From an uncultured Bacilli bacterium (GTDB taxonomy: Bacteria > Bacillota_I > Bacilli_A > RFN20 > CAG-449), in the NCBI GenBank assembly GCA_947627505.1, contig CANQWG010000001.1:9216-73215 (forward strand): a stretch of DNA of 64,000 nucleotides, given 5' to 3'. Position numbers and translations under genes: made by a program. Positions 1 to 55,653 of the stretch are shown piece after piece (position 1 is the first letter of the stretch; each line of letters starts with the position of its first letter). Under the pieces are notes generated by a model. That model searched no databases and was not told where the DNA came from. It saw only the letters and a list, made by a program, of their open reading frames with translations.

Positions 1-1076
1 ATTATAAAAGAACATTTAATATTGAAAAAATCCTAGAACGTAATGTTTATAGTGGGAAAACTTTGGTTTATGAATATCCTAATACCTTACAAAAAGTGAA
101 AAAGCAGATATTTACTAGATTTGATATTTTAGTTACTAAGCGGCAATATGTAGGAAATAAATTATTTGAGCAAATCAGTATTCAACCTGCGGCTGAAGGT
201 TTATATCCTTTGAAAGCATCGGATAATCGATTGTTAGATACTGCTAAATATGGTGGTTATAACCATTTGGCTAATGGATTTTACTGTTTGGTTAAATCAC
301 TTGATAAAAAAGGTAAAGAATTTGTGTCGATTGAAGCGATGCAAAATATTTATGTTAAACCTACCGATTCAATAGAAAAGAAAAAAGAGTACTTAATCAA
401 AATAAAGAAGTTAAACAATCCGCAAATAATAAATGAATTATTACGGATCAATATGGTTATAGAGCAAGATCATAAAAAATTTTGTATTACCGGTAAAACA
501 AATGAAAGTCTTTTAATTCAAAATCTTAAACAAATTACTTTTGCTGAAAAAGAAATTAATTTATTTAAAAAGCTTTCAAAATTAAATAAAATTTGTATGG
601 AAAAAGGCTTAAAACTTAATAATAAAGATGATTCAAAAATAAAATCATATTTTAAAATAACCGAAGATCTTTCAAATCATGATAGTGAAATCGTGATAAG
701 TCCTGCAAAAAATGATAAAGTCCAAAAAATTACCTTAAAGGATTCGGAACTTATCGAAATGTATAAAATAATAGTCACAAAATTGAATAAAAATGTCTTA
801 AGCGAATATTCAAATTTAAATAAGATAAAGATTAATTTAGAAGATGAAAATTCTTTTGAAAAATTTAATAATCTAAATATCTTTTTAAAGGCTTATGTCA
901 TTACGGAAATGCTCAATTTAACTAAGTGTGATCGAGTTACTTCTGATTTATCTTTAATTGGATTATCTGCTAATTCAGGTGTATTAGTCATAAATAAAAA
1001 AATAACTGCGGGTATGCGAATAGTGAACGAATCTATAACCGGTTATTATCGAAAGGTAATCTATGAGGCAAAATAG
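1..1076 (+). CDS. cas9: Cas9 C-terminal portion (type II-A), truncated at the window edge. The frame is open from nt 3 to the stop at 1076, so the annotated TTG start at 63 is an artefact.
   Basis: Frame 0 has no stop from position 3 onward. A large protein immediately precedes cas1-cas2-csn2 and a CRISPR array. The C-terminal region is K/N-rich, consistent with a PAM-interacting domain. Confidence 0.7.
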   Translation, partial: YKRTFNIEKILERNVYSGKTLVYEYPNTLQKVKKQIFTRFDILVTKRQYVGNKLFEQISIQPAAEGLYPLKASDNRLLDTAKYGGYNHLANGFYCLVKSLDKKGKEFVSIEAMQNIYVKPTDSIEKKKEYLIKIKKLNNPQIINELLRINMVIEQDHKKFCITGKTNESLLIQNLKQITFAEKEINLFKKLSKLNKICMEKGLKLNNKDDSKIKSYFKITEDLSNHDSEIVISPAKNDKVQKITLKDSELIEMYKIIVTKLNKNVLSEYSNLNKIKINLEDENSFEKFNNLNIFLKAYVITEMLNLTKCDRVTSDLSLIGLSANSGVLVINKKITAGMRIVNESITGYYRKVIYEAK

Positions 1077-1949
1077 ATGAGTTTTAGAACGGTAGTAATA
1101 AAAAACAGATGTAAGTTAGAATATTCTTTAAATCAATTAATTTATCGAGGAGAGAATGAACTAAAAATAAATATAAATGAAATCACTAGTTTAATCATTC
1201 AAAGTTCCCAAGTAGCGATTACTAGCGCTCTTATTTCTAAATTGATTGAAAATAAAATAAAGGTTATATTTTGTGATTCCTATCACAATCCTCAATGTGA
1301 ATTAATACCTTATTATGGCAATTATAACGTAAAAGAAAAAATTACTACACAAATGTCGATTACAAAATCTTGTGCTGACATCACATGGAAAGAGATTGTT
1401 TATCAAAAGATTTTCAATCAATTACAAAATTTACAGTATAAAGGCTATGAATTGGCAAGCGAAAAACTTAAAGTATATTTAAATGAAATTGAAGTAGGAG
1501 ATATCAGTAATCGCGAAGGTCATGCAGCGAAAGTTTACTTTAATGCACTTTTTGGCAATACATTTTCTAGAGATCAAAAAAATGACATCAATGCTTTTTT
1601 AGATTACGGATATGCTATTTTGCTCTCTGCAATAAATCGTGAAATTAAAAACTTAGGATATTTAACTGAAATTGGTATTCATCATATTGGCAATACTAAT
1701 CCATTTAATCTCTCTTGCGATTTTATTGAACCTCTTCGACCTTTGGTTGATTTTTATGTGATTGCGGGAAAATTGAATATTGATAATTTCAAAAAAGAAT
1801 TAGTAAATTTATTGAATGTCAATGTCTTCATAGATGATAAAACAATGATATTGGATAACGCAATTAGGGTATATGTACAGTCCCTTTTTCAAGCATTAAT
1901 TAAAGAAGACATAAAGGAAATAAAATTTATTCAATATGAACGAGTATAG
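1077..1949 (+). CDS. cas1: CRISPR-associated endonuclease Cas1 (type II)
   Basis: 290 aa. The N-terminus (MSFRTVVIKNRCKLEY...) and overall length are typical of type II Cas1. The start abuts the cas9 stop, and the gene precedes cas2-csn2 and the array. Confidence 0.85.
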   Translation: MSFRTVVIKNRCKLEYSLNQLIYRGENELKININEITSLIIQSSQVAITSALISKLIENKIKVIFCDSYHNPQCELIPYYGNYNVKEKITTQMSITKSCADITWKEIVYQKIFNQLQNLQYKGYELASEKLKVYLNEIEVGDISNREGHAAKVYFNALFGNTFSRDQKNDINAFLDYGYAILLSAINREIKNLGYLTEIGIHHIGNTNPFNLSCDFIEPLRPLVDFYVIAGKLNIDNFKKELVNLLNVNVFIDDKTMILDNAIRVYVQSLFQALIKEDIKEIKFIQYERV

Positions 1950-2259
1950 ATATATGAGAATCATTTTGTTTTTCGATTTACCGGTAGAAAATAGTAAGCA
2001 ACGGAAAAATTATCGACTTTTTATTAAAACCTTAAAAATGAATGGATTTTTTCAAATGCAAAAATCTGTGTACTGCAAAATGAGTATTGATCCGCAAAAT
2101 GCTGAAAGTACTATCAATAGAATAAAAAGCAATATTCCTTCTGAAGGAATTATCACAGCGTTAACAGTCACTGAAAAACAATTTTCAAACATTAATTATT
2201 TATTGGGCGATTATAAGACAGAAGTACTGCAAACCGACGAAAGGTTGGTTGAGCTATGA
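1936..2259 (+). CDS. cas2: CRISPR-associated endoribonuclease Cas2
   Basis: 107 aa. Overlaps the cas1 3' end and sits in the cas1-cas2-csn2 position. Sequence is Cas2-like (MRIILFFDLPVENSKQRKNYRLF...). Confidence 0.8.
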   Translation: MNEYRYMRIILFFDLPVENSKQRKNYRLFIKTLKMNGFFQMQKSVYCKMSIDPQNAESTINRIKSNIPSEGIITALTVTEKQFSNINYLLGDYKTEVLQTDERLVEL

Positions 2260-2915
2260 TATATTTAAGATTTAAACAAATTGATTATCAATTTGTTATA
2301 AATAATAACATTTGCCATTACTTGGTTGTTGAAAACCAACATTTATTTGCTGAATTATTGAATAATCTCATGATGTATGATGAAGAAAGTATCTTTCTTT
2401 CAGATAATTATCAAATTATTAATTTAAAAAAAGAAATGTTTATTATAGAAAACATTTTAAATTTTGAAATAAATAATAAAAAGTATATAAACCAATTATA
2501 TAATTATATTGATAAAAGCAATTCTAATCAAAATATGGCTCAAAAGCTTGCTGCAGTTAATGTGTTATTGTCAGAAATAATTGCGGAGGTTAAGTTAGAT
2601 ACTAACATCACTTTAGAATATAAAGAAGTAATTAATTTAATTGATATTTTACAAATGTTTGATATAAAAGTTGATCTTGATAATACCGATTTAATCCATA
2701 AATTATTGATTTATATCAAATTTATTGGACTAATTTACAATACAAAGGTTATTATTATCCCATTTTTAGATTCTTTTTTAACTCCTCAAGAAATTCTAAC
2801 TCTTATTCAAGAAGTTTCTTTGCTAGAAATATGCATTTTTATACTTAGTCCATATGATAAATCGTTATTAAATGTAAATAGAGTAATTGTTGATAATGAT
2901 TTATGCTTAATATAG
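2256..2915 (+). CDS. csn2: Csn2 (type II-A specific adaptation protein)
   Basis: 219 aa, the short Csn2 class. The motif ICHYLVVENQHLFAELLNNLMMYDEESIFLSD resembles the S. thermophilus Csn2 N-terminus. It is the last cas gene before the leader and array. Confidence 0.75.
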   Translation: MIYLRFKQIDYQFVINNNICHYLVVENQHLFAELLNNLMMYDEESIFLSDNYQIINLKKEMFIIENILNFEINNKKYINQLYNYIDKSNSNQNMAQKLAAVNVLLSEIIAEVKLDTNITLEYKEVINLIDILQMFDIKVDLDNTDLIHKLLIYIKFIGLIYNTKVIIIPFLDSFLTPQEILTLIQEVSLLEICIFILSPYDKSLLNVNRVIVDNDLCLI

Positions 2916-2982: not shown

Positions 2983-5332
2983 GTTTGAGAGTAATGTTAA
3001 ATAAGGTATCTAATTAACTAGCCATTTCTAGGCAACAAGAAAAGAAGTGTTTGAGAGTAATGTTAAATAAGGTATCTAATTAACTATATTATTAGCAGAT
3101 ATGCACCACGTATCTGTTTGAGAGTAATGTTAAATAAGGTATCTAATTAACTCAAACGGGGGGGGACGCTTCCAGAATTTCGTTTGAGAGTAATGTTAAA
3201 TAAGGTATCTAATTAACTGACTCTATTTTTGTTTTTTACTACTCATCGTTTGAGAGTAATGTTAAATAAGGTATCTAATTAACTGTGGTTTTCATTCCAC
3301 ATATAAGGAGGATGTTTGAGAGTAATGTTAAATAAGGTATCTAATTAACATCTTTTGGCGGGTCCGCGTTGCCTGAATTGTTTGAGAGTAATGTTAAATA
3401 AGGTATCTAATTAACAAGCGCCACCAATATTCTAGCGGATACGTCGTTTGAGAGTAATGTTAAATAAGGTATCTAATTAACGATAAATATAACTATGATG
3501 TTTTAAGGCCTGTTTGAGAGTAATGTTAAATAAGGTATCTAATTAACTAAATACGCAGGACGTCCACCTTATCAAGAGTTTGAGAGTAATGTTAAATAAG
3601 GTATCTAATTAACATTTTCAAAAATTAAAAGCTTCAAGAAAAAGTTTGAGAGTAATGTTAAATAAGGTATCTAATTAACATTCCACCTCCTAAAATAGCA
3701 TCCAACGAAGTTTGAGAGTAATGTTAAATAAGGTATCTAATTAACATTTGCGACATATTGTTCGCCTTGCTCATTGTTTGAGAGTAATGTTAAATAAGGT
3801 ATCTAATTAACCAAACGGGGGGACTGATTCCAGAATTTTAGGTTTGAGAGTAATGTTAAATAAGGTATCTAATTAACGATATTAGCGGTATTTCGATTAT
3901 TAGGTGGGTTTGAGAGTAATGTTAAATAAGGTATCTAATTAACTTATTTATTCCTACTTAGTTAATAAGTCTTGTTTGAGAGTAATGTTAAATAAGGTAT
4001 CTAATTAACTGATTTTGTCGACGTTAGTAAACATTTTTCTGTTTGAGAGTAATGTTAAATAAGGTATCTAATTAACCCTAAGCGCCTTTAATCGCTCCAC
4101 GTTTGCGTTTGAGAGTAATGTTAAATAAGGTATCTAATTAACTCAGAGTCCCATATTGTCGCGACTTTAGTCGGTTTGAGAGTAATGTTAAATAAGGTAT
4201 CTAATTAACAAATATTTTATTTTTAATCATGCATACCTCGTTTGAGAGTAATGTTAAATAAGGTATCTAATTAACTCAAACGACGAGCTAGACGAGTTAT
4301 ATTACGTTTGAGAGTAATGTTAAATAAGGTATCTAATTAACAAGTAAGTAGATAAAACATCACTACCGGCGGGTTTGAGAGTAATGTTAAATAAGGTATC
4401 TAATTAACATGAATCCTCTAACAAATCGAATGAATCCAGTTTGAGAGTAATGTTAAATAAGGTATCTAATTAACAGAACTAAAAGAAGTTTCATTGTCAT
4501 TCATGTTTGAGAGTAATGTTAAATAAGGTATCTAATTAACATATTTGAGCGCGATAACTAATACCATACAGTTTGAGAGTAATGTTAAATAAGGTATCTA
4601 ATTAACCGTTAACAAAAACATCGCCTCAGACGCGCAGTTTGAGAGTAATGTTAAATAAGGTATCTAATTAACTGATAAACTTCAGAGCAAACCAAAGCAT
4701 TAAGTTTGAGAGTAATGTTAAATAAGGTATCTAATTAACCTTAACGATGACTTTTAACGATGTCACGTTGTTTGAGAGTAATGTTAAATAAGGTATCTAA
4801 TTAACAAACGACGATTCAGAGCGGAGGATAAGGAGGTTTGAGAGTAATGTTAAATAAGGTATCTAATTAACCCTCACTATATCCATCTCCTTTACCGAGA
4901 CGTTTGAGAGTAATGTTAAATAAGGTATCTAATTAACATTTCTAAATGAATAATAATAATCATCGATGTTTGAGAGTAATGTTAAATAAGGTATCTAATT
5001 AACAAAAGAAATTATATAAAGAAAATTTTATCTGTTTGAGAGTAATGTTAAATAAGGTATCTAATTAACGAGGTGGAATATGCAAGCAATAATTAATTTG
5101 TTTGAGAGTAATGTTAAATAAGGTATCTAATTAACGATGTTCAACGCGACAAAGTAATCAGGACAGTTTGAGAGTAATGTTAAATAAGGTATCTAATTAA
5201 CCTCCACGTGTAGCGTTGTAAGAAAGAATATGTTTGAGAGTAATGTTAAATAAGGTATCTAATTAACTGGTGTTAATTCTTCACAATGGCTATGTAGTTT
5301 GAGAGTAATGTTAAATAAGGTAATTAAATTAT
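2983..5332 (+). CRISPR. CRISPR array: 36 direct repeats of GTTTGAGAGTAATGTTAAATAAGGTATCTAATTAAC (36 bp) with 35 spacers of 30-31 bp. The last repeat is degenerate (…GGTAATTAAATT).
   Basis: Perfect ~66-bp periodicity read directly in the sequence. The repeat starts GTTTGAGAG, as type II-A repeats do. Confidence 0.97.
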
Positions 5333-39166: not shown

Positions 39167-40321
39167 TTATTTAAAAATTTTATCAATGAGACCAACGGTT
39201 TCGTTAGGAAATATATGTGAATAAGTATCTAAAGTTTCTTTAACAGAACTGTGCCTTAAATGCTTGCTTACAATTAAAGGAGATATACCTGCATTTATCA
39301 TTCGTGAAGCGCAACTATGTCTTAAGCCATGAAATTTTATATGCGATATATTAGCATCTTTAGCGTGCTTATCCATTATTCTTCTAATAGTTGTTCTAGA
39401 AGTGTGTTTATGACCGAAAAACATATAATCATCATCTGTGGCATACATATCTTCTTTTAGTTTTATTAAATCATTTGTTAGATCTTCGGACATAGAAACT
39501 GTTCCGTGACTACTAGCGGTTTTAGCATCATCTAAATTTCCGCTGCTATCCATGCTTTTGTTTATATTGATTGTTTTTGCTATTGGATTAAAATCACTCC
39601 ACTTAAGTGGTATAAGTTCACCAATTCTTAAACCGCAAACATATGTCGTTTTAAATAATAATCTCCAAATATCATCTTTTTCGAAAGTAGCGTAGAATTT
39701 ATCCCATTCTTCGTTGGTCCAAAAAGATAATGATTCTTTACTTGATGAAATAGATTCCCTAATAGGTTTAATCAATACTTTTAATTTTCTATATAGTTCA
39801 TAAGATATATATTCATGGTCGGATGCATATTCTAACATATTTTTTAATAGTAAGAGTATTCGATTTTTTCTTTTTGACTTAATTGTTTTAATGTTTATAA
39901 TTTTAGCTTTAAAATTTTCTATTGTATTTATCGTAAATGCTTTTTCTAACGATAAAGAAATTGAAAAGTTAGGCAAAATATATTTCTTAATCATTAAATT
40001 TTTATTGTAAGTAGTTTGTGTTTTTAGCATTGATTTGCACTCGGTTATAAATAATTTAGATAATTCATAAAGCGTTATAGAAGCTTCAGAGTGCAAATAT
40101 AATTTCCTTCTTTTTTTATCTTTTTCTATTTCTTCAGCTTCTATTGCTTGGACAAACTTTTTGCCACGTTCTTTTGTCCATTCTTTATTGTATATACTAA
40201 TTGTTTTAAACGTTCCATCTGGTAATTTTAAATTATAACATATAAAATATCTTTTTCTTGATTTGTTGTAGCAAATACTCATTGTTTTTTCCTCCTTATT
40301 TTTGTTATAATAGAGGAGCAA
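39167..40321 (-). CDS. Phage tyrosine integrase (site-specific recombinase)
   Basis: 384 aa. The C-terminal catalytic region HGLRHSCASRMINAGI…LRHSSVKETLDTYSHIF carries the R-H-R-Y signature. It sits next to tRNA-Thr. Confidence 0.85.
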   Translation of the reverse strand: MLLYYNKNKEEKTMSICYNKSRKRYFICYNLKLPDGTFKTISIYNKEWTKERGKKFVQAIEAEEIEKDKKRRKLYLHSEASITLYELSKLFITECKSMLKTQTTYNKNLMIKKYILPNFSISLSLEKAFTINTIENFKAKIINIKTIKSKRKNRILLLLKNMLEYASDHEYISYELYRKLKVLIKPIRESISSSKESLSFWTNEEWDKFYATFEKDDIWRLLFKTTYVCGLRIGELIPLKWSDFNPIAKTININKSMDSSGNLDDAKTASSHGTVSMSEDLTNDLIKLKEDMYATDDDYMFFGHKHTSRTTIRRIMDKHAKDANISHIKFHGLRHSCASRMINAGISPLIVSKHLRHSSVKETLDTYSHIFPNETVGLIDKIFK

Positions 40322-40489
40322 AAAGGGTCCTTCCTTTTTGCTTCTATTGTTGAGCCTACTTTACAAACTTTGGTCGGTTGGAAAAGTAGGTTCTTTTTTA
40401 TTGGTCGATTTTATCACGATAATTTTGTTTTGATCTCTCACCTTTGATAACATCATCTCCTTTCTAAGTTTATTTTAGTTTAAAATTTA

Positions 40490-41128
40490 TCACTTTATAT
40501 CGCTTTGAAAAGCGATTGCCTTTCCTATAATTCTTATATCATTTAGTTCCTCGCCGATATAAACTAAAGGAGCGTATTTTGGATTCTCGGCTTGCAGAAT
40601 CAGCTTTCCTTTGTCTGGATAATAGTAAACGCGTTTTAATGTAGCTTCATTGTCAATGATTACAACTGCTATATCACCATTGTTAACCATGGATGCACTT
40701 TTGATAAATACTATATCACCATCATAAATTCTTGCACCAACCATGCTATCGCCTCTTGCAATTAGGCAAAAATCAGCGTGAATTTTTGTTCCTAATTTAA
40801 CATAGGATTCTCTGTCTTCGTTAGCAAACTTTGGTGTTCCACAAGATATTTCGCCCAAGCAAGGAAGACTTTGTTTGTCAATTTGGTAGAAGTTGTCAAA
40901 GTTTTCGATATATTCTTCGTTTGCATTATCTTCCCATCCCATAATTTTTGCTGGAGAAACCAATAAAGCATCGGCTAATAATTTAATCTTATCTCTTTTC
41001 ATATTTGAGATATTTCCTGATTCCCATCTTGAAATAGTTGCTTCTGATACATTAACCTTTTCAGCTAGTTGCTTCATAGTCAAACTCAGTTCAATTCTTC
41101 TATTTTTAATAAATTCTCCAATTGTCAT
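40490..41128 (-). CDS. cI-like phage repressor (XRE HTH plus S24 LexA-like peptidase)
   Basis: HTH LSLTMKQLAEKVNVSEATISRWESG and S24 motif GDSMVGARIYDGDIVFIK. Start chosen at MTIGEF, which has AAAGGAGG 6 nt upstream. Confidence 0.8.
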   Translation of the reverse strand: MTIGEFIKNRRIELSLTMKQLAEKVNVSEATISRWESGNISNMKRDKIKLLADALLVSPAKIMGWEDNANEEYIENFDNFYQIDKQSLPCLGEISCGTPKFANEDRESYVKLGTKIHADFCLIARGDSMVGARIYDGDIVFIKSASMVNNGDIAVVIIDNEATLKRVYYYPDKGKLILQAENPKYAPLVYIGEELNDIRIIGKAIAFQSDIK

Positions 41129-41165
41129 AGCAACGCCTCCTTTCATAATTATTATTAGCAAATGA

Positions 41166-41268
41166 CTTGCTTTTTTGCAAGCATTACTAAAAAAAAAGGA
41201 AAAAAACTTGCATTCGCGTATTGACAACAGATTTTTTTAATAGTAATATGTACTTGCGTAAATGCAAG
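41166..41268. promoter_or_regulatory. cI/cro divergent control region
   Basis: Two 16-bp palindromic operators, CTTGC-N6-GCAAG, at 41166-41181 and 41253-41268. A sigma-70-like promoter lies between them (TTGACA 41221-41226, 17-bp spacer, TAATAT 41244-49). Confidence 0.55.
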
Positions 41269-41281
41269 AAAGGAGAGAGAT

Positions 41282-41515
41282 ATGTTCGATTTAAATTTGT
41301 TTAATTCGGTATTAGCCTTCAGGGGAATTTCAAAAAAAGAATTAGCTTCTAAAATCGGTTTATCAGAAACGACAATCTATAAGAAAATCAACAGAAATGG
41401 CGATTTTAGTAGAGAAGAAATTCAAAAGATTGGAAATATCATTGGAAAAGAAAATGCAAAAGCAATTTTTTTTGCAGACGAACTTACGCAAATGCAAGAA
41501 ACGGATGCACACTAG
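41282..41515 (+). CDS. Cro-like HTH regulator
   Basis: 77 aa. The segment ISKKELASKIGLSETTIYKKIN is an XRE-type HTH. Transcribed divergently from cI. Confidence 0.6.
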   Translation: MFDLNLFNSVLAFRGISKKELASKIGLSETTIYKKINRNGDFSREEIQKIGNIIGKENAKAIFFADELTQMQETDAH

Positions 41516-41556
41516 CGTATTTATGATCGAAAAATTACGAAAAGAAAGGAGGAACT

Positions 41557-41826
41557 ATGAGACAGCAATTTGGAGATCTAACAATAGAAAAGAAAGAGCA
41601 ATTACTGTCGAAGCCATGTATTAGAGTTGAAGACGTTATGGTTCTAACGGGATATGGCCGTAGTATGTGTTATCAATTGATGAATGAATGCAGACAAAAT
41701 TTTAACGGCCGCGCTGGTATCAGAACTGATGCAATAACACCTAAATCATTATGTTTGGCCCTAGGCACAACAATAGAGGCAGAAATGAGACTCATCGGAA
41801 TAGCAAAAGGATATATACAGCTATGA
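41557..41826 (+). CDS. Small phage DNA-binding protein (putative HTH)
   Basis: 89 aa, in the early-operon position. Confidence 0.3.
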   Translation: MRQQFGDLTIEKKEQLLSKPCIRVEDVMVLTGYGRSMCYQLMNECRQNFNGRAGIRTDAITPKSLCLALGTTIEAEMRLIGIAKGYIQL

Positions 41827-42503
41827 AAAAAATGTATAAAAGAGAGATTTACTCGACCAAAGAAGAATGGCTCAACAATAGAGGTTTTGGGGGTAGTTCT
41901 GCAAGTGCAATCTTGGGAAAAAACCCTTATATGACAATAATCGAATTGTACAAACGTATTGTTCATGGTGGTTCACCAAAGAATGATTCTAATGAATCTA
42001 TGCAATATGGGACATTATGTGAACCACTTATGAGAAAACTGTTTGCGCTCGACTATAAGGACAAATACAAAGTTAAAGCTCCTTGCAAGTATGAAATGTA
42101 TCGACGAAAAGACAAACCTTATTTAACTGCAACTCTTGACGGAAGATTAACCGACCTAATCAGTGGAGTTAAAGGAATATGGGAATGTAAAACACATGAT
42201 GTTAGAAACAAAGCGGATGATGAAATGTGGCAATTAGGATTACCGGATAATTATTTCATCCAATGCTTACATTACCTTGTAGTAATGAATGATTGTGATT
42301 TTGTAATTTTAACCGCTAAATTAAGATATTTTGACTATTACCACGAAGACGGAAAGAAATTACTTTATCAAAAAATTATCTATCACATGATCTGGCGTGA
42401 TGATGTCAAAGATCAATTAGATTACTTAGAAAAGCAAGAAACGGACTTTTATGAAAATAACGTCCAAAAAAAAATTATGCCAAATTATTCAATTAAATTT
42501 TAG
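41823..42503 (+). CDS. YqaJ-like viral recombination exonuclease
   Basis: …NRGFGGSSASAILGKNPYMTIIELY is the YqaJ N-terminal motif. Paired with RecT downstream. Start at MKKMYK, which overlaps the upstream stop (ATGA). Confidence 0.7.
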   Translation: MKKMYKREIYSTKEEWLNNRGFGGSSASAILGKNPYMTIIELYKRIVHGGSPKNDSNESMQYGTLCEPLMRKLFALDYKDKYKVKAPCKYEMYRRKDKPYLTATLDGRLTDLISGVKGIWECKTHDVRNKADDEMWQLGLPDNYFIQCLHYLVVMNDCDFVILTAKLRYFDYYHEDGKKLLYQKIIYHMIWRDDVKDQLDYLEKQETDFYENNVQKKIMPNYSIKF

Positions 42504-42511
42504 GAGGAAAT

Positions 42512-42964
42512 ATGGAAAAAGAATTGAAACTTGTACCTGTGCAAGACAAAGAAACAGGCGTCTATCAAATAGAAAATTTTGAGGAAAACAAAAAAATAGT
42601 TAAGGATTTCTTGGCCAATGAATGCCATGTTGAAATGGAAATAAATTCGGCTGAAGACTACAAACTTATCAAGAACACTAGAACGGATATTCGCAAAAAG
42701 AGAGAGACGATAAAAAATATTCGTATCCAAGTGTCCGAAATGTTAATTGGTGTCTTCGAATCTCAATTAAAAGAAATTGAAAGAGAAATCGATGCGACAG
42801 ATTTAATCTTGAAGGAAAAAATTGATGCTTACGATAAATTGATTAACAACAAGCAAGACAAGCCTTCGAAGATTACTTTAACCGTTAAAGGTTACGATAT
42901 GCAAAAAATTCAAAAAGTCAAAGATTATGCCATTAAGCAAGGCTTAGAGGCAGCAATTAAATAG
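42512..42964 (+). CDS. Hypothetical phage protein
   Basis: ORF with an RBS; sits between the exonuclease and RecT. Confidence 0.4.
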   Translation: MEKELKLVPVQDKETGVYQIENFEENKKIVKDFLANECHVEMEINSAEDYKLIKNTRTDIRKKRETIKNIRIQVSEMLIGVFESQLKEIEREIDATDLILKEKIDAYDKLINNKQDKPSKITLTVKGYDMQKIQKVKDYAIKQGLEAAIK

Positions 42965-42976
42965 GAGGAAATAACA

Positions 42977-43876
42977 ATGGCAAATGAACTTTCAAAAAAT
43001 CTAAAAAACGAGGTTAGTGCTGCTATTAGCAATACTACGATAGCAGATTCAATATTAAAAAACTTCAGTCAACTTGTGGAGGCAGAACAATTAAAATTTC
43101 CGGAGAATTATAACGTAGGTAACCAGTTAAAACTAGCATATTTAACCATTATTCAAAACCCAGATTTCATAGGGTGTACATCCACTTCAATTGGACAAGC
43201 ATTAACTGAATTTGCGCTTCAAGGTTTAGAGGTAGATAAAAAGCAAGTTTATTTCATTAAATATGGAAATCAGCTAAAAATGTTTAGATCTTACTTTGGC
43301 GACGTGGCAGTTGCTTATAGAACCGAATTGGTAAAGGACATTAAAGCAATGGTCGTTTACAGCGGAGATAAGTTTGAAACAACCATTTCTAATGATGAAG
43401 AAGTTGTTGCATATCACAAAACATCTTTTGTCAATCGAGACAATGAAATTATTGGAGCATACGCTGTAGCCACTTTACCAGATGGAGCAAAAAGATATTG
43501 CATAATGACTAAAAAAGAAATTGAGGCCAACTGGAATAAATCGCGTTCACAAAAAAGAGAAGTACAAAAAGAGTTCCCACAGGAAATGGCCAAAAGGACT
43601 GTTATCCGCCGTCTAGTTAAGATGTTATTTAACACTGCCAACACAAGCGACAACTATATCGCGGCAACAATTGCTTCGTACAACAGAACAACCGAAGAAG
43701 AATACGAAAATAGTATAGAAAACTCTCCGACTCCAAGAAAAACAACGGTGCATAATTCTATTTTACCAGAGGCGAATCCATCATCTGAAGAATTAGTCGC
43801 GGATCCGGTGGAAGATGTTGTTGAAACTGCCGAGCCGTCAGTTGAATCAGTTGCAGATGAAGTTGTAGATGAATAG
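42977..43876 (+). CDS. recT: RecT-family single-strand annealing protein
   Basis: 299 aa with an acidic C-terminal tail. It sits in the standard position after YqaJ. Confidence 0.65.
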   Translation: MANELSKNLKNEVSAAISNTTIADSILKNFSQLVEAEQLKFPENYNVGNQLKLAYLTIIQNPDFIGCTSTSIGQALTEFALQGLEVDKKQVYFIKYGNQLKMFRSYFGDVAVAYRTELVKDIKAMVVYSGDKFETTISNDEEVVAYHKTSFVNRDNEIIGAYAVATLPDGAKRYCIMTKKEIEANWNKSRSQKREVQKEFPQEMAKRTVIRRLVKMLFNTANTSDNYIAATIASYNRTTEEEYENSIENSPTPRKTTVHNSILPEANPSSEELVADPVEDVVETAEPSVESVADEVVDE

Positions 43877-43889
43877 GTGGTAAGTAATT

Positions 43890-44057
43890 ATGCTTTTAAA
43901 AGAGACGCGTAAAATTGATTCTAAGGGAAGAATTATTCTTCCCCCACCTTTATTAAGACAATGCAAATTAAAACCTGGCGATGTTGTTTTTTTCGAAAGT
44001 ACTAAATCTGGATCAATTATTATTCGGAAAGACAAGAGCGATGAACAACAAAAATAA
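43890..44057 (+). CDS. AbrB/SpoVT-type small DNA-binding protein (55 aa). It is missing from the ORF track because it is under 60 aa.
   Basis: Translation MLLKETRKIDSKGRIILPPPLLRQCKLKPGDVVFFE… matches the swapped-hairpin AbrB/MazE motif. RBS AGGTGG upstream. Confidence 0.5.
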   Translation: MLLKETRKIDSKGRIILPPPLLRQCKLKPGDVVFFESTKSGSIIIRKDKSDEQQK

Positions 44058-44967
44058 AGCCCAAAAATATTATTGGTTCAAGCTAAAATTATCCTTTTTG
44101 GATAGTCCCAAAGTAGATTTTCTAATGTCGCAAAATGGTGGAGCTAATTATGTAGTGATTTACCAAATGCTTTGTTTGAAAGCGATTAACACAAACGGTA
44201 AATTAGAAACATCTGTGAAAGAATGTAGAATCAAATGGGACGACGCTAAAATACAGCGTGAATTAAAGTACTTTGAAATAGACACAATACGAATCGCCAT
44301 GACTCTATTCCTACAACTCGGTTTAATCGTTCCTGATGAAGAAGGTATACTTCAAATTCAAGATTTTAGCGAGCTTGTCGGTTCTGAAACCGGTGCTGCT
44401 ATTGAAAAAAGAGAGCAAAGAAAAAGAATAGACAAAGGGATAGACAAAGGGATAGACAAAAGAATAGACAAAGGGATAGACAAAGGGATAGACAATGTCT
44501 ATCCAGAGTATAGAGATAAGAGTATAGAGTATAGATATAAGAATATAGAGAATATAGATAATATAAATAATATATATAATACTTTAGAAGATAAAAAAGA
44601 TAAAAAAGATAAAAAAGATAAAACCCCTGACGAGGTGTCAAAAAATCCCTTCATAATATTTCTTTTGTCGAAAAATTTTTTTACCAAAAAAGATTATATC
44701 GAAATTCCACTCATCGAAGAGTTTTACGATTCACTGCTTGAGGGCTATTCGTTAAAATCACCTGAATGGATACAACAATATAAAAATATTTTCATAGCAA
44801 CCAAATATATGGTTACCTATGCTTCTAACCCAGAGATTATTGAAGATAAATTAAGTTACATTAAAACCGCAATTAGCGATTCACTTAATAGAAATTACAA
44901 TAATTCGGATTGGATGGAAGAGTGCGAACGCTATTTCGAAACTCATCCGGAACTAAAACGTTATTAA
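44041..44967 (+). CDS. Phage replisome organiser / replication initiator with internal iterons (origin of replication)
   Basis: The N-terminus MNNKNKAQKYYWFKLKLSFLDSPKVDFL resembles phage_rep_org_N proteins. The coding sequence holds 12-bp tandem repeats that translate to DKGIDKGIDKRIDKGIDKGID. Confidence 0.55.
   Translation: MNNKNKAQKYYWFKLKLSFLDSPKVDFLMSQNGGANYVVIYQMLCLKAINTNGKLETSVKECRIKWDDAKIQRELKYFEIDTIRIAMTLFLQLGLIVPDEEGILQIQDFSELVGSETGAAIEKREQRKRIDKGIDKGIDKRIDKGIDKGIDNVYPEYRDKSIEYRYKNIENIDNINNIYNTLEDKKDKKDKKDKTPDEVSKNPFIIFLLSKNFFTKKDYIEIPLIEEFYDSLLEGYSLKSPEWIQQYKNIFIATKYMVTYASNPEIIEDKLSYIKTAISDSLNRNYNNSDWMEECERYFETHPELKRY
44428..44626 (+). repeat. Iteron cluster and AT-rich unwinding element. 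There are about 5.7 copies of ATAGACAAAGGG (44428-44499), then TATAGAG-type AT-rich repeats, then 3 copies of GATAAAAAA (44591-44626).
   Basis: Tandem repeats are directly visible, in a lambda-O-like arrangement with the origin inside the initiator gene. Confidence 0.7.
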
Positions 44968-45004
44968 AACCGACCAAATAAAAAAACAATAGAGGCAAAA
45001 AGAA

Positions 45005-45451
45005 ATGAATAATGCACAATGGAGATTATATAATCTTTTGAAAAAGAAAAATCAAGAAAATCCAAATCACTGGGTTACTCACGAAGAAATATGCAAAGAA
45101 TTGCCGGATTTATTTTCATTAAATCATAAAGCAATCAATAAAATGTGTTCGTCGCATATTCAACAGCACATTTTAAAAATCAATGAAGATAATAAAATTG
45201 AAAAAATAATCATGTATAAAAATCAAAGTTACCGTTTGGCAAAAGATTCGGTCGAAGCTTTCGATTTTATTCGCAATAAGTTATTTATTCGCGGATTAAG
45301 ACATTTAAAACGTTATTGGACCTTATTAGACAAAATACGAAGCGACGGTCAAATGAAATTACTCTCAAATAGAAGTGAAATCATAGATAAAGATTCTCGT
45401 GCCAGAGATTATTTTGAAACTTATTTACCGACGGGAAAAAATCAAACATGA
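45005..45451 (+). CDS. Hypothetical phage replication-module protein
   Basis: ORF only. Confidence 0.4.
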   Translation: MNNAQWRLYNLLKKKNQENPNHWVTHEEICKELPDLFSLNHKAINKMCSSHIQQHILKINEDNKIEKIIMYKNQSYRLAKDSVEAFDFIRNKLFIRGLRHLKRYWTLLDKIRSDGQMKLLSNRSEIIDKDSRARDYFETYLPTGKNQT

Positions 45452-45837
45452 AAAAAACTTTTGCTATTTTCAATGAATTTAATCTTATTGGGCGACTGTG
45501 TAATACTCCTCAAAAGGAATTTACCAAAAATCATCAACTATTTACACGCATTACTTTAAAAACCCGATTTCGAGACGAAATATTTATTCCAATAATCATG
45601 TTTGGAAAAGAAGTCGATGTTGTATGCACTAAATTTCAAATTGGCGACGTTGTGGCCATTAAAGGTCAAATCTCTTCGCGAGAAAAACAAGACGGGAAAT
45701 TGATGATAGATTTTGTTGCAACAGAAATGCAATTGATTTCTAAAACAAATCTTGAAATCGTCCAAGAAGATAAATTCTTGAAAGTTATTGAATTATATGA
45801 TCCTGAAAAAGTGACCAAAAGAATGATGAAAAAATAG
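45448..45837 (+). CDS. SSB-like OB-fold protein (no acidic tail)
   Basis: FNLIGRLCNTPQKEF…ITLKT resembles the SSB N-terminal OB fold. Confidence 0.45.
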   Translation: MKKTFAIFNEFNLIGRLCNTPQKEFTKNHQLFTRITLKTRFRDEIFIPIIMFGKEVDVVCTKFQIGDVVAIKGQISSREKQDGKLMIDFVATEMQLISKTNLEIVQEDKFLKVIELYDPEKVTKRMMKK

Positions 45838-45846
45838 GAGGCAAAT

Positions 45847-46218
45847 ATGGCTTTAAATAATTCTTTTCGACTAATAGGCACAATTATTACTCCTTTCAAC
45901 AAAGTTAAAAGAGGTAAATATAATGTCTACGAAGTTGAAATCGAAGTTCAAAATGGTAAGTCGATTCAAACAATTCCACTTACATTTTACGCTAAAACGG
46001 CGAACCCTGTTACCGATTACACTCGAGATTTAACCGGCATGCAAGTAGCGGTCGGAGGATACATCCAGGGCAATCGCTACAGCTTGCAGGACAAAGTTAT
46101 TCACTACATTTATATGGTTGTCAATGAATTATCAATCATATCTAAAGGATTTGACGATATGAACACCGGTGTTAGTGCACAAGGAATCTTAATTCCTGAC
46201 GATGATTTACCATTTTAA
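45847..46218 (+). CDS. ssb: Single-stranded DNA-binding protein
   Basis: OB-fold start FRLIGTI… and the canonical acidic C-terminal tail DDDLPF. Confidence 0.65.
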   Translation: MALNNSFRLIGTIITPFNKVKRGKYNVYEVEIEVQNGKSIQTIPLTFYAKTANPVTDYTRDLTGMQVAVGGYIQGNRYSLQDKVIHYIYMVVNELSIISKGFDDMNTGVSAQGILIPDDDLPF

Positions 46219-46241
46219 AAAACAATAAGGAGAAAAATAAA

Positions 46242-47090
46242 ATGAAAAACGTTAAAAACTTAACTCTAGAAGAAAGAGTAACACTCTTAGAAAAGCAAAT
46301 GAGCAACTTAGTTGCAAATAAAGAATTAACAACGGAATTTGCATTGAATGTCAAAAACCTTAAAAGCAGTGGCGAACCCAAAGGAGTAGATTTCTTGAAT
46401 TATGTAGAATCGCTTTCAGAAAAGATTGAAGATGAACACAAGAACATCTATGTAAAATTACCTACAATTTATGTCAATGTAATGAGTAGAATTATTTACT
46501 TCTCGTTTAACGAGATCGATGGCTATATCAAATTACAGCCTCAATTAGTTTCTAAATATAAAAACTCATTAGTAGATGGAAAGATAAGATCTATTCCAAA
46601 TGTCGCTCCAAACTTCTCGCAATTCTCATTTAACAAAGCTACGAAATTTTGCAAGTGGGTTGATGGCGAACAACTGAATTGGCGTACCGTTCTTTACTTC
46701 CAAATAATGTGGGCGTACGCATACGGAACCAAAAATAATAACTCCATTTTGCCAAATGAAAAATATAATTGGAGTAGTGAAAGAGATTGTGCTTTTGGTG
46801 ACACAGGTAAAGGAATAGGCGAGTTTTTGGGCGTTGAGCAATTATTTACATCAGGTCGAAATTTTGTTGATCTTAGCGACCATGAAACAGAACTGTGGAA
46901 AATATATAAAGAATGGAATTTTAATGAACAATTTGATCCTAACGCAAAATTCGCTGAATGGGGCGATTATGATCCTGACGAAAAGTCAAAAGGGGTCTTC
47001 TTCTCGGATTGGAATAATGGGTTCAACCGCTGTTGGAACGCCGGCGACCGCGCCGTCCGCCTTTGCAAAAAGCCTTATGAAGGGTGTTAG
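46242..47090 (+). CDS. Hypothetical phage protein
   Basis: ORF only. Confidence 0.4.
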   Translation: MKNVKNLTLEERVTLLEKQMSNLVANKELTTEFALNVKNLKSSGEPKGVDFLNYVESLSEKIEDEHKNIYVKLPTIYVNVMSRIIYFSFNEIDGYIKLQPQLVSKYKNSLVDGKIRSIPNVAPNFSQFSFNKATKFCKWVDGEQLNWRTVLYFQIMWAYAYGTKNNNSILPNEKYNWSSERDCAFGDTGKGIGEFLGVEQLFTSGRNFVDLSDHETELWKIYKEWNFNEQFDPNAKFAEWGDYDPDEKSKGVFFSDWNNGFNRCWNAGDRAVRLCKKPYEGC

Positions 47091-47111
47091 GATTATCTTT
47101 AATTTATCAAT

Positions 47112-47558
47112 ATGGCAAAACAAGAAAACAAGGTAATTAAAACAGCCGCAGATTCGGTCAGAAAAATTTTATTTAACTTTGATCTGGAAATGACTGCAAG
47201 TGTTGGGGAGTTGAAACTCGCAAGAGCAAAAACTCTCCGCTATAAAAATCCTAAAAATAATCGAGAAAAAGAGATTTACACAAACGCTCGCATCGATGAA
47301 GAGAAATTAAAAGTATTTATTCAACAATTGACGGCCGGGAAAAATGAAACGTGGCAGTCCTTAGAACAAATTTTAGAAATCTATAATCCAAAATACAAAA
47401 AGATTTGGTTAATGTATTTTATCAGCCAATATACTTACGAAGAAATCGCCCAAAAAACTAATTATTCCGTAGATGGTGTTAATTTTATAATTCAAAAATT
47501 AAAAAAAGACTTAATTGATTTAAACCTAATTGCAAAGGAGGATAACGCAAGTGAGTGA
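47112..47558 (+). CDS. Sigma-70 region-4-like / ArpU-like late transcription regulator
   Basis: …YTYEEIAQKTNYSVDGVNFIIQKLKK is a region-4-type HTH. Confidence 0.4.
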   Translation: MAKQENKVIKTAADSVRKILFNFDLEMTASVGELKLARAKTLRYKNPKNNREKEIYTNARIDEEKLKVFIQQLTAGKNETWQSLEQILEIYNPKYKKIWLMYFISQYTYEEIAQKTNYSVDGVNFIIQKLKKDLIDLNLIAKEDNASE

Positions 47559-48132
47559 TTGTTTGAAAAATGTAAAATTTAAAATTATTAGTCCGATTGT
47601 TACAAAAGCAAGACCTAAAGCAAGAGTAGTTAACGGACAATACGCTCAAATGTATACACCTAAAAAGACTTCTGTTTATGAAAATTTTATCAAACTAAAT
47701 TATCAAGAAAAAGTGAATTACTTTTTTGACGAAAGGCCATTAGAAGTTGCGATTGTTGCCTACTTCAAATGCCCAAATGCTCTTAAAAAATATATACCAT
47801 TCGATATCAAGTGTGTTAATCATAAAGATCTTGATAATATTGCAAAAACAATTTTGGATGCCTTAAATGGTATAGCTTATAAAGACGATAAACAAGTTCA
47901 AAAATTGCATGTTACTAAGAAATATTCCGAAACCGACTATGATTATGTCGAGGTATCAATCAGCGATGTTGTGGGAACTCTTGAAGAGGTTAAACAAATG
48001 TATGAATATGAGAAATTAACGCAAGAAATCTCAAAATTAGAAAGCAAAGGCACTTTAAATGCAAAAGACAAAGAACGGCTTATAAAACTAAAGGAAAAAA
48101 CTAATAGTTTTAGTACTCCGTTACCGTTTTAA
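47548..48132 (+). CDS. rusA: RusA-family Holliday junction resolvase (with a C-terminal extension)
   Basis: DLDNIAKTILDALNGIAYKDDKQV is the RusA catalytic signature. Start at GTG 47548, which has AAGGAGG upstream. Confidence 0.6.
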   Translation, partial: QVSDCLKNVKFKIISPIVTKARPKARVVNGQYAQMYTPKKTSVYENFIKLNYQEKVNYFFDERPLEVAIVAYFKCPNALKKYIPFDIKCVNHKDLDNIAKTILDALNGIAYKDDKQVQKLHVTKKYSETDYDYVEVSISDVVGTLEEVKQMYEYEKLTQEISKLESKGTLNAKDKERLIKLKEKTNSFSTPLPF

Positions 48133-48148
48133 AGGAGATGAAAGCAAA

Positions 48149-48538
48149 ATGACAATAGAACAATTAAGAACCCAAGACAAAAAACATGCGCAAGTAATTG
48201 CAAATTATCTAATAAAAAGAATTGAAACCGACCAATGCTTAAAAGAAAAAATTGAAACAACAACTAAAACATTAAAAGGATGTGTTAAATATTGTAAAAA
48301 TGAGGCGCGTAAACAAGCTGAAGATGGATGTGCAATGATTCCTGATGATGAAGTGTTTAAGTGGGCAGTTCATTATTTTCTTGAAGATTCAATCAAAGAA
48401 AATGAAATACCATCTATTCCTAATTCTAAAATTAACAATGAAAAAAATAATACTCAAAAATTTACTTCTGATACTAAAAAAGATAAAGATGTAAAAAAGA
48501 AACTTATCGAGCAATTAACATTATTTGACTTAGGTTAA
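48149..48538 (+). CDS. Hypothetical phage protein
   Basis: ORF only. Confidence 0.35.
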   Translation: MTIEQLRTQDKKHAQVIANYLIKRIETDQCLKEKIETTTKTLKGCVKYCKNEARKQAEDGCAMIPDDEVFKWAVHYFLEDSIKENEIPSIPNSKINNEKNNTQKFTSDTKKDKDVKKKLIEQLTLFDLG

Positions 48539-48539
48539 T

Positions 48540-49865
48540 ATGGAACCATTTGATTACAATCCAATACTAGAACTTGTTGACTATCCAATTACGCTAGAAG
48601 ATAAGATTAAAGAATTGGGATATTATTTTTCAAGTTATTTAGAATATGATGCAAAGAAAAAAGAATTTATACGACATGTTTATGCAAGTCGAACCACGAA
48701 AAAAAATGGTTTTGAGTGCATGGAAATTTTTAGAGAATATGAAAGCGGCTTAAAAATAGGAAAAAATTTTTATTATTGCTCATACGGAAATGCTGCAGGG
48801 ATGCACGTTGTTTGGAAAAACACAAATTCATTTTATTACGGAAATAAAGAAAGGATTAAAAAATTTGTTGAATGTGATGATTTTATAAATATTGGAATGT
48901 TTCGGTCGTTTCAAATGACTACATTAGAGGAAATTGTAAGTAATGATTTAAATTTGAGATTTTGTCGATGGAACAATCACGTTGATGCTTTAAATTATAT
49001 TAAAATTTACAAAAGATATCCGATTGTAGAAATGCTAATGAAACTTGAATTATATCACTTAGTCTTTAATGAAAAATGCCTTTTGTTAATGATAGAAAGT
49101 AAACAATTTTGCAGATGGCTTTTTAAAAATAGAGATGCGATAAAAAAAGATCAAATTTCTTTTCCAGCTTTAAAATCTGCGTTTAAAAACGGGCAAGATG
49201 TTGCTAAATATAATGAGAAAATTATTAAAAAAAGATTGGATGCTAAAAGAATATCAGATGAGTTAGGCACTCAACTTTATCATCTTATAAAAGATGTATG
49301 TAAAGATTTTAATAAGGCGCAAAAATATGCTCAAATGGTTGGTAAAGAAAATTATCGAGATTATTTAGAAGCTTGCAAATTTTTGAAATTAGATTTATCT
49401 GATACAAAAGTTTTATATCCAAAAAATTTTAAATACTGGCATGATTTTTACGTTAATCAAATGACCTCAGCAAAAAACACAATAATAGATCAAAATATAT
49501 TAAAACAGGCCAAGCGATATAAATATTTGCTTTTAGATTTAGAAAAATTAGTTTTAATTTTTCCTTCAAAAACTCAAGATTTTATCGATGAGGGCAACGC
49601 ATTACATCACTGTGTAGGTCGTATGAATTATAACGAAAAGATGGCTAAAGGTGAATCGCTAATTATTTTCATTAGAAAAAAAACAGCACCAAACAATCCA
49701 TTTGTTACGATGGAATATAATCCTAAAAAAAAGAACATACAGCAAATTTATGGCAATCATGATGAACCACCTACTGCAGAAGTTAAAAATGAAATTTATA
49801 ACTTTTGGCTTCCAATGGTGCAACAAATAAAAAATAAGAAGTTAAAGGAGAAAAAAATAATATGA
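48540..49865 (+). CDS. PcfJ-like protein
   Basis: 441 aa; a weak resemblance to plasmid and phage PcfJ-domain proteins. Confidence 0.4.
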   Translation: MEPFDYNPILELVDYPITLEDKIKELGYYFSSYLEYDAKKKEFIRHVYASRTTKKNGFECMEIFREYESGLKIGKNFYYCSYGNAAGMHVVWKNTNSFYYGNKERIKKFVECDDFINIGMFRSFQMTTLEEIVSNDLNLRFCRWNNHVDALNYIKIYKRYPIVEMLMKLELYHLVFNEKCLLLMIESKQFCRWLFKNRDAIKKDQISFPALKSAFKNGQDVAKYNEKIIKKRLDAKRISDELGTQLYHLIKDVCKDFNKAQKYAQMVGKENYRDYLEACKFLKLDLSDTKVLYPKNFKYWHDFYVNQMTSAKNTIIDQNILKQAKRYKYLLLDLEKLVLIFPSKTQDFIDEGNALHHCVGRMNYNEKMAKGESLIIFIRKKTAPNNPFVTMEYNPKKKNIQQIYGNHDEPPTAEVKNEIYNFWLPMVQQIKNKKLKEKKII

Positions 49866-49934
49866 GAGCTGATGAATTAGTAGACAAAGAACGAGGAATA
49901 AGTATTTTTTCGGTTTTAATTAAAAGGAAACAAA

Positions 49935-50692
49935 ATGTTTGAATTAAACAAAATTTACCTAGGAGACGCTTACGAGCTTATTAAAAAAATTCCCGACAAA
50001 AGCATTGATTTGATTGTTACTGATCCACCATATGAGATAAATACGATGACAGGCGGTGGAAATTGCATTATCAATGGAACGTTGGCAAAATGGAGCCAAA
50101 AAACTTGTTTTAAAGACTTGGGAGAAAACAAATTAAATATCGGAATAGATGAAAGTATTTTAAATGAATTTATGCGAATTTTAAAGTTACCAAACATTTA
50201 TATATGGTGTAATACAAAGCAAATATATAAATATTTAAAGTTTTTTGTAGGGAAACACAATTTGAATTTTAAACCTATAATTTGGAACAAAATAAACGCT
50301 ATGCCATTATGCGGAGGAAAATATCTTGATGATTGCGAATATTGCTTATATTTTTACAAAGGTATTCGCTTAAATGCTTCTTACGATACGGCAAAAACTG
50401 TTTATTATGAGCCGATAAATTATAACGATAAAAAACTTTTTTCACATCCGACAATTAAACCATTAAATATTATTAAGAATCTTATTATCAATTCTTCTAA
50501 CGGGGGGGGGGTATAATTCTAGATCCGTTTATCGGAAGCGGAACTACAGCAGTAGCGTGCAAGGAGCTTGGGCGTAACTATCTAGGTTTTGAAATCAATG
50601 AAAAATATTATCAAATCGCCGTTGATAGGATTAACGGTACAACTCAAAAAGAAAAGAAACAAGGAATAAAACAATTAACATTATTTGATTAA
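49935..50692 (+). pseudogene. Beta-class DNA methyltransferase (N4-cytosine or N6-adenine) interrupted by a frameshift in a G10 homopolymer (50502-50511)
   Basis: The upstream frame has DPPY motif IV (IVTDPPYEIN) and ends …SSNGGGV*. The downstream frame continues GIILDPFIGSGTTAVACKELGRNYLGFEINEKY (motif I, FxGxG). The frame is restored by +1 G or -2 G. Confidence 0.75.
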
Positions 50693-50705
50693 AAAAGGAG
50701 GAAAA

Positions 50706-50888
50706 ATGGATTACGAAAAAATTATTGACGCGTTAAAAACAATTAAAGAAGTATGCAAGAAATCAGACTGCACTGATGACAATTGTCCTTTTTGCGAAGA
50801 GGCAACTTGTTGTATTCAAAAAGTGGCGCCAGAGTATTGGGAAATTAAAGATATTGAAGAAATAGAACAAATTAAGGTTTTTAAATAA
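50706..50888 (+). CDS. Small Cys-rich phage protein (two CxxC motifs)
   Basis: Contains SDCTDDNCPFCEEATCC. Start MDYEK has AAGGAGG upstream. Confidence 0.4.
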   Translation: MDYEKIIDALKTIKEVCKKSDCTDDNCPFCEEATCCIQKVAPEYWEIKDIEEIEQIKVFK

Positions 50889-50894
50889 GTATGG

Positions 50895-51128
50895 GTGGTT
50901 AAAAAAATGAAGAGTAAATTATTATCATCGCCAAAAAAGGGTGCTTCAATCAAAGAAAAATTAGATTTTTACGATCATTTAATGGAACAAGGCGATTTAA
51001 CTTTAAAGCAGTTAAAAGTGCTAAGACAAAGATTGTATAAAATCGACACTTACTTCCAAGATTGCGAAATCATAATTCAAAAAGGCGTTCTGTTGGAATG
51101 TGTCAACGAACTAATTAAGGAGTATTAA
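50895..51128 (+). CDS. Hypothetical phage protein
   Basis: ORF only. Confidence 0.3.
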   Translation: MVKKMKSKLLSSPKKGASIKEKLDFYDHLMEQGDLTLKQLKVLRQRLYKIDTYFQDCEIIIQKGVLLECVNELIKEY

Positions 51129-51130
51129 AT

Positions 51131-51490: not shown

Positions 51491-51507
51491 ATTAAGGAGA
51501 AAAAACT

Positions 51508-51918: not shown

Positions 51919-51936
51919 AAAAAAGAAAGAAAAATA

Positions 51937-52134: not shown

Positions 52135-52150
52135 GAGGAGAAAAAAATAA

Positions 52151-52486: not shown

Positions 52487-52498
52487 GGAGGAAAAGAA

Positions 52499-53990: not shown

Positions 53991-53993
53991 ACA

Positions 53994-54659: not shown

Positions 54660-54670
54660 AAAAAAGAGGA

Positions 54671-55443: not shown

Positions 55444-55467
55444 TTACTAATCCTCCTTATAAAATTC

Positions 55468-55638: not shown

Positions 55639-55653
55639 CTTTCTATTTCTCCT

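Follow-up and report, generated by a model that had tools for sequence, protein, structure and literature searches.

We analysed a 64,000-nucleotide (nt) stretch of contig CANQWG010000001.1 from an uncultured Bacilli bacterium (the window), which carries at its left end a clustered regularly interspaced short palindromic repeats (CRISPR)-Cas system and further to the right a resident prophage with a DNA methyltransferase gene (Table 1). Two spacers of the CRISPR array, spacers 3 and 13, contain runs of G, as does the methyltransferase gene, and an earlier note on this DNA had proposed that both spacers were acquired from related phages carrying a diverged allele of that gene. The CRISPR-Cas system is of type II-A, with a cas9-cas1-cas2-csn2 operon, identified using Pfam, adjoining an array that has 36-nt repeats starting GTTT.AGAG, spacers of ~30 nt and a degenerate terminal repeat at 5297-5332. 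A complete Cas9 of 1403 amino acids (aa), with RuvC, HNH, REC and protospacer-adjacent motif (PAM)-interacting (PI) domains, is encoded by the same contig in another assembly (L004), in which the array is also present, and part of the array is found in a further locus (L005). The leader lies on the csn2 side and the degenerate repeat at the far end, which makes spacer 1 the newest and places the acquisition of spacer 3 after that of spacer 13.

Table 1. Positions of the CRISPR-Cas and prophage features discussed in the text, numbered from the first nucleotide of the window.
Feature	Position	Strand	Remarks
cas9, 3' part (PAM-interacting domain)	1..1076	+	Pfam Cas9_PI, E = 9.6e-40; gene truncated by left window end
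cas1	1077..1949	+	Pfam Cas_Cas1, E = 5.9e-26
cas2	1936..2259	+	Pfam CRISPR_Cas2, E = 2.9e-16
csn2 (type II-A signature gene)	2256..2915	+	Pfam Cas_Csn2, E = 8.6e-13
CRISPR array	2983..5332	+	36 repeats of 36 nt (GTTTGAGAGTAATGTTAAATAAGGTATCTAATTAAC) and 35 spacers of 29-31 nt
Spacer 3	3152..3181	+	TCAAACGGGGGGGGACGCTTCCAGAATTTC; G8; leader-proximal, newer
Spacer 13	3812..3841	+	CAAACGGGGGGACTGATTCCAGAATTTTAG; G6; older; variant of the protospacer of spacer 3
Resident prophage	39167..64000, continuing past window end		Pfam and PHROGs matches; extension in L107
Prophage integrase	39167-40321	-	prophage start
Orphan beta-class N6A/N4C DNA methyltransferase gene (PF01555)	49935..50692	+	frameshifted in window; open reading frame (ORF) stops at 50516
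G10 tract, putatively hypermutable, OFF state	50502..50511	+	G11 or G8 would be in frame

The positions and sequences given for spacers 3 and 13 in the earlier note are exact, and these two are the sole related pair among the 35. Their local alignment scored 19, compared with 10 for the next-best of 1190 comparisons and a maximum of 14 in 3000 shuffles. The two spacers have CAAAC, a G run (8 versus 6), AC and TTCCAGAATTT in common, giving a shared site layout of CAAAC-Gn-AC-(GC/TGA)-TTCCAGAATTT, and differ by about 4-6 substitutions and by indels that amount to one base net, while both are of the modal length of 30 nt. Because the array repeats are 100% identical, the degenerate last one apart, while these spacers differ by substitutions as well as indels, they represent independent acquisitions and not drift within the array, which bears out the earlier proposal that one site was sampled twice from two variants.

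Replication slippage inside the array after acquisition, as opposed to variation in the phage population, could also have generated the G8 and G6 lengths, since a G8 run is inherently slippage-prone and acquisition with G7 would have made spacer 3 29 nt long, a length that occurs only once in the array. We consider this improbable, as the G8 of spacer 3 is unchanged across three independent assemblies, each spacer already has the modal length, and 5-6 substitutions and a second indel also separate the pair, so that two source variants would be required anyway. The invariance of the G8 run in the three assemblies likewise argues against generic homopolymer assembly noise.

All four AAACG words among the spacers sit at spacer positions 1-3 (spacers 3, 13, 20 and 28, at 3152, 3812, 4276 and 4806), the spacer start TCAAAC is the reverse complement of the first six bases of the repeat, and spacers 20 and 28 additionally share AAACGACGA. 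The idea that these four spacers sample one locus or a foreign array was rejected, as a generic 5-mer sharing statistic was not significant and the (TC)AAACG of spacer 20 is ordinary coding DNA of a tape-measure gene. The shared AAACG start is probably a coincidence.

When the frame of the prophage methyltransferase gene was repaired, its product matched the Pfam family N6_N4_Mtase (E = 2.4e-29), with motif IV (DPPY) preceding motif I (DPFIGSGTT), which is the beta-class order, and with the DPPY and DPF.GSGT columns invariant. The motif I reading quoted in the earlier note is right only for a tract of G8 or G11, but the window itself has G10, at which the gene is frameshifted and runs into the stop at 50516. 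A full-length 252-aa methyltransferase (P0138) is encoded in the L003 locus, where the tract is G11. This locus and L001, which has G10, are the same prophage in two metagenome assemblies of one series, and one G is their sole difference across 20,582 bp. G10 was found in the window and in three to four contigs, and G9, which is out of frame, in a second contig and in a diverged allele (L002) from the rabbit-gut metagenome-assembled genome (MAG) 'uncultured Clostridia bacterium Lapin-005 bin96', whose gene has ~80% nucleotide and 66% amino-acid identity to that of the window. For the window allele, only the G10 and G11 products were present in the protein collection, with none of the G7, G8, G9, G12, G13 or G14 products. 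In addition, GGG is encoded at the tract position in many family members.

At the level of sequence, the methyltransferase tract has the features expected of a slipped-strand contingency locus. It is a long homopolymer inside an ORF and rare for the base composition, with two runs of at least 8 observed versus 0.09 expected, an excess of about 20-fold; its length is polymorphic in otherwise identical DNA, with in-frame and out-of-frame states; and the tract and ~25 nt on each side are retained in the ~80%-identical L002 allele. The suggestion of the earlier note that homopolymer length varies in the phage population is directly supported for this tract (G9, G10 and G11) and is implied for the spacer target by G6 versus G8.

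A methyltransferase homologue from a Lachnospiraceae MAG carries a G10 run, in frame, at the other of the two glycine-triplet motifs (DPPYVLDPIAGGGM, L095:8477-8486), and a C7 run lies in the TSPPY motif of a gene beside a more distant homologue (L100:9511-9517). Such runs at Gly or Pro codons of motifs may be a recurring trait of phage methyltransferases. A 59%-identical homologue in another rabbit-gut MAG (L096:10001-10780) is divided between two frames around residue 81, and the junction contains no homopolymer of 5 or longer; this may reflect a pseudogene or faulty assembly.

In support of a shared origin, the earlier note had counted identities of 10/11 and 8/10 between the left and right flanks of the spacer and methyltransferase G runs. 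These counts are arithmetically right, but the G run itself makes up 6 of the 11 positions in the left block and the right block requires a 4-nt indel, and a second right-flank alignment (ATTCCAGA versus ATTCTAGA) is equally good and incompatible with the 8/10 alignment. Testing the flanks with the G run taken as given, and with 20,000 anchor points drawn at random from the same prophage for comparison, we found that the right flank matches the methyltransferase site at chance level (P = 0.50 for spacer 3 and 0.31 for spacer 13), whereas the left flank of 5-6 nt matches at 5/6 (P = 0.008) and 4/5 (P = 0.02), two values that are interdependent and stand without strand correction. When G runs were collapsed in all sequences, the methyltransferase site scored 10 and 13, which is background. 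In a gapped local scan of the window with spacer 3 the methyltransferase site came first, only via TC-AAC and the G run (13/14) and with no match 3' of the run, and with spacer 13 it fell outside the top matches. Near-identity between the spacers and the methyltransferase site across the protospacer, including its PAM-proximal half, was not found. With the right flank at chance and the G-collapsed scores at background, the spacers do not line up with the methyltransferase site as had been claimed, and the accompanying idea that the resident prophage escapes through mismatches is moot, as there is virtually no PAM-proximal complementarity to start with.

A diverged allele does not bring the sequences closer. 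In L002 the flanks are those of the window for ~25 nt on either side of its own G9, and the methyltransferase site is thus conserved where the spacers differ. Across the 120 protein homologues closest to the methyltransferase (52-100% identity), the peptides NGGTDSRIL, NGGDASRI, QTGG, SRI and LIPEF were absent from the poly-G site and likewise from the second glycine-triplet site, after DPPY. Family members always have L or F directly before the invariant DPF, a position at which the frame of spacer 3 would give Ser. In 17 relatives from GTDB genomes, the DNA of the site did not resemble the spacers (scores of at most 16), while the methyltransferase homologues in IMG/VR all had 45% identity or less and were uninformative.

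Spacers 3 and 13 therefore do not appear, on the sequences compared, to derive from the prophage methyltransferase gene. An origin in a diverged allele carried by related phages, at the poly-G site upstream of motif I, would fit the TC(A/T)AAC-Gn that spacers and site have in common, the exceptional G runs of both sequences, the open N-G-G-T-D-S-R-I-L-(D) frame, which could abut DPF, and the existence of a homologue (P0011) with an equally long linker, GGGNSSIIL. Set against a right flank and seed region at chance, two mutually exclusive right-flank alignments, a sole real diverged allele with unchanged flanks, the absence of spacer-like peptides or DNA from 120 homologues of at least 52% identity and 17 genomic loci, and the Ser before DPF, these points leave such an origin very improbable. 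In the alignment to homologous methyltransferase genes the similarity comes down to the G run, with conservation of neither flanks nor peptide, and as the earlier note had named this outcome beforehand as telling against its proposal, that proposal is close to refuted by its own standard.

The source of the two spacers was also sought elsewhere. All 35 spacers, compared with the ~35 kb of readable resident prophage, gave no match, and BLASTN of all 35 against annotated phages (50,697 records) and 72,556 plasmids returned chance matches only (E >= 0.6), with the caveat that the low-complexity filter of BLAST may mask G runs. The pattern CAAACG6-N{3,12}-TTCCAGAATTT was absent from IMG/VR, GTDB genomes and JGI metagenomes, and the CRISPR repeat from JGI metagenomes, the GTDB and JGI sets searched being ones that do not include the host. 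In IMG/VR there were no matches to G6ACN{1,4}TTCCAGAATT or to the 3' 19-mer of spacer 13, and two chance matches to AAACG6N{0,4}ACN{2,3}TTCCAG, in contigs of 58-61% GC. The 3' 17-mer of spacer 3 had nine IMG/VR matches, eight of them plain chance and the ninth in a 5-kb contig (L109).

At the matching site, this last contig has AAACG-ACGCTTCCAGAATTTC, identical to spacer 3 once the G run of the spacer is reduced to a single base (21/21; 19/21 for spacer 13), and the site lies in frame within a phrog_429 ORF (E = 5e-49), reading N-D-A-S-R-I-S where spacer 3 reads N-G-G-D-A-S-R-I-S. The protospacer could accordingly be placed in the N-terminal part of a myovirus gene for a T4 gp2-like 'DNA end protector', with the G run as a Gly-codon insertion (N-[GG]-D-A-S-R-I-S), and it fits this placement that LNDA.RIS is conserved in the subfamily and that the frame is the one chosen by the earlier note. 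Even so, nine IMG/VR matches are about the chance number for a 17-mer, the 4-base extension has a P of 0.04-0.15, and a 6-7-residue peptide match is insignificant at this database size. The relatives of L109 vary at synonymous sites (18-19/21), so that L109 simply has the combination of codons, among the many in a large family, that happens to match; these relatives come from other studies and pipelines, seemingly aquatic, and lie outside the rabbit-gut series. Neither an NGG insertion nor a poly-G run was seen in the 120 nearest homologues, the family occurs among annotated phages only in T4-like phages of Gram-negative hosts and cyanobacteria, and no gp2-like homologue was found that combines a G run at the site with a plausible host environment. 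We regard the gp2-like placement as quite unlikely, slightly more so than slippage within the array, and the L109 match as probably a coincidence. Stop-codon recoding, considered for L088, was discarded because the apparent gap is a giant ORF running past the locus end.

Spacer 20 was the only spacer for which the searches yielded any protospacer relative (21/21 at its 3' end and 25/30 overall), in the tape-measure gene of 150-159 kb IMG/VR contigs that are unrelated to the resident prophage, with the 3' flank AATCATAG. With this one near-protospacer only, the PAM is not definable. The near-protospacer of spacer 20 indicates that the array targets other phages, and public coverage of the phages of this host is clearly poor.

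Taken together, we think it probable that the spacer pair and the methyltransferase switch are separate, with a G run as their only common feature, and that the spacers do not come from the methyltransferase gene. Spacer 13 and later spacer 3 would have been separate type II-A acquisitions of one ~30-bp site from two variants of a mobile element that public databases lack and that is most likely a phage. Given its mismatches to the PAM-proximal seed of spacer 13 (…TTTTAG versus …TTTC) and its indels, a phage of the spacer 3 type would be expected to escape spacer 13, and the gain of spacer 3 would then have restored immunity at the same site, possibly aided by Cas9-dependent priming near the old target. 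Independently, the poly-G tract, which occupies Gly codons immediately upstream of motif I, would act as a slipped-strand ON/OFF switch, with G11 yielding the full 252-aa enzyme and G10 (as in the window) and G9 yielding truncated products that lack motif I, which binds S-adenosylmethionine (AdoMet). Its likely role would be bet-hedging of phage or host DNA methylation against restriction systems.

Several points weigh against this reading. Two runs of at least G8 within one window of 33% GC are unusual in themselves, and the left flank, TC-AAC beside the run, fits the methyltransferase site at 5/6 (P ≈ 0.01). The spacer 3/13 protospacer was not found in the collections searched, and its origin is assigned by exclusion only. 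The scenario of escape and re-acquisition is inferred. Finally, the G10/G11 difference comes from assemblies of ~7x coverage and may reflect a mixed population or consensus noise instead of a fixed difference.

A further possibility, which we hold to be doubtful although less so than the alternatives above, is that spacers 3 and 13 target a contingency locus, in a phage of this host, with a hypermutable poly-G tract of its own, of which the array has archived a G6 state (in frame, N-G-G-T-D-S-R-I-L) and a G8 state (one base off). If so, slippage together with nearby substitutions would serve both as a phage gene switch and as a cheap escape from Cas9, to which the host would respond by taking up a new spacer there; poly-G switches would in that case recur in this phage community, with the prophage methyltransferase tract as another example.

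Phase variation of DNA methyltransferases driven by homopolymers or other repeats is well documented (PMC5149525, PMC6902483, PMC5700931, PMC6321876), and we therefore assign the tract to a known category. In phasevarions, simple sequence repeats (SSRs) switch phase-variable methyltransferases, such as Mod of Haemophilus, Neisseria, Helicobacter and Moraxella (PMC5149525, PMC6902483, PMC5700931). As in these systems, the repeat tract lies within the methyltransferase ORF, where slippage would toggle the frame, and here the ON (G11) and OFF (G9, G10) states were both seen. However, phasevarions involve chromosomal type III mod genes of mucosal pathogens, whereas the gene examined here encodes an orphan beta-class PF01555 enzyme in the early/replication region of a temperate phage from a rabbit-gut Clostridia-type MAG, and its tract lies in Gly codons directly before motif I. 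Poly-G contingency loci of Campylobacter and Helicobacter are intragenic G/C homopolymers of 8-11 nt (PMC6321876, PMC8355987, PMC2823697), and like them the tract is rare for the base composition and differs in length between near-identical sequences; unlike them, it is phage-borne, in a low-GC Firmicutes-type host, with one such tract visible in 64 kb. Solved beta-class relatives of the enzyme include the DpnA-type 5hek/5hfj, M.MboIIA (1g60), CcrM (6pbd) and the N4C enzymes 8s9m (E from 1e-21 to 1e-14), in which motif IV (DPPY) is likewise N-terminal to motif I (DPFxGSGTT). Sequence identity to these is low, so base and sequence specificity are not inferable, and none of them is reported with a homopolymer switch such as the one proposed for the prophage methyltransferase.

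The spacer pair resembles primed acquisition in type II-A systems, in that the spacers are of 30 nt and the newer one falls at the place of an older, imperfect match. Cleavage by Cas9 reportedly primes spacer acquisition in Streptococcus pyogenes. Repeated or primed acquisition near an existing target has been described for the type II-A system of S. mutans P42S (PMC8265633). The published priming cases concern a known phage genome, with new spacers hundreds of bases to kilobases from the old target; by contrast, spacers 3 and 13 overlap almost fully, their target is absent from the databases searched, and priming is only a possibility here.

Other observations concern the CRISPR locus among related strains. 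In L005, a single-base variant of spacer 22 (window 4409-4438; …GAATGAGTCCA versus …GAATGAATCCA) stands at the very contig end and could be either a true polymorphism or an artefact of that position. Related strains (L125:8744-9026, L126 and L127, including MAG GCA_947588815.1) have the same flanking genes as the window, for a 395-aa protein and a DUF1848 protein, and are without cas9, cas1, cas2, csn2 and the array (compared with window 2916-5363), with one solitary degenerate terminal repeat left directly upstream of the DUF1848 gene, which could be either a deletion scar or the pre-insertion state of the CRISPR locus. Another strain (L128:1-587, sample ERZ27249206) has an identical repeat and an identical degenerate terminal repeat with an entirely different set of at least nine spacers, the old trailer end included, and none of these matched the resident prophage or any of the fetched loci.

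The resident prophage encodes an integrase, a cI-like repressor, RecT/YqaJ, a replication module, the methyltransferase, a terminase and a portal protein. Spacer 4 has a 16-nt exact match to it at 53998-54014, at the start of a DUF5131 gene; this match is T-rich, of low complexity and confined to spacer positions 5-20, and we judged it to be chance. PcfK-/PcfJ-like genes of the conjugative-plasmid type lie directly upstream of the methyltransferase gene (48149-49865), and an anti-restriction-type ArdC-N/MPTase-PolyVal gene lies on the minus strand at 57023-58183, an arrangement that fits an anti-restriction toolkit around a switchable methylase. In-frame tandem repeats occur at 44422-44623 (units of 12, 36, 7 to 21 and 9 nt) in the replication-organiser gene (43981-44967) and at 51318-51447 (3.9 copies of a 33-nt unit) in the ORF at 51131-51490, and these are possible further length-variable sites.

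Had the proposal of the earlier note held, the CRISPR system of this host would have been aimed at a phage epigenetic switch, a reading that fails. The methyltransferase switch and the overlapping spacer pair both fall within known categories and are so far anecdotal, although the setting is unusual for the switch. The type II-A array contains two spacers that overlap and stem from variant copies of a single site, which is consistent with escape followed by re-acquisition. With the methyltransferase tract, an uncultured gut Firmicute would offer a clean natural case of ON/OFF switching by a homopolymer, in an orphan methyltransferase carried by a phage and with both states in otherwise identical DNA, and bet-hedging of methylation state by temperate phages could be tested directly at this locus, given read-level and methylome data.

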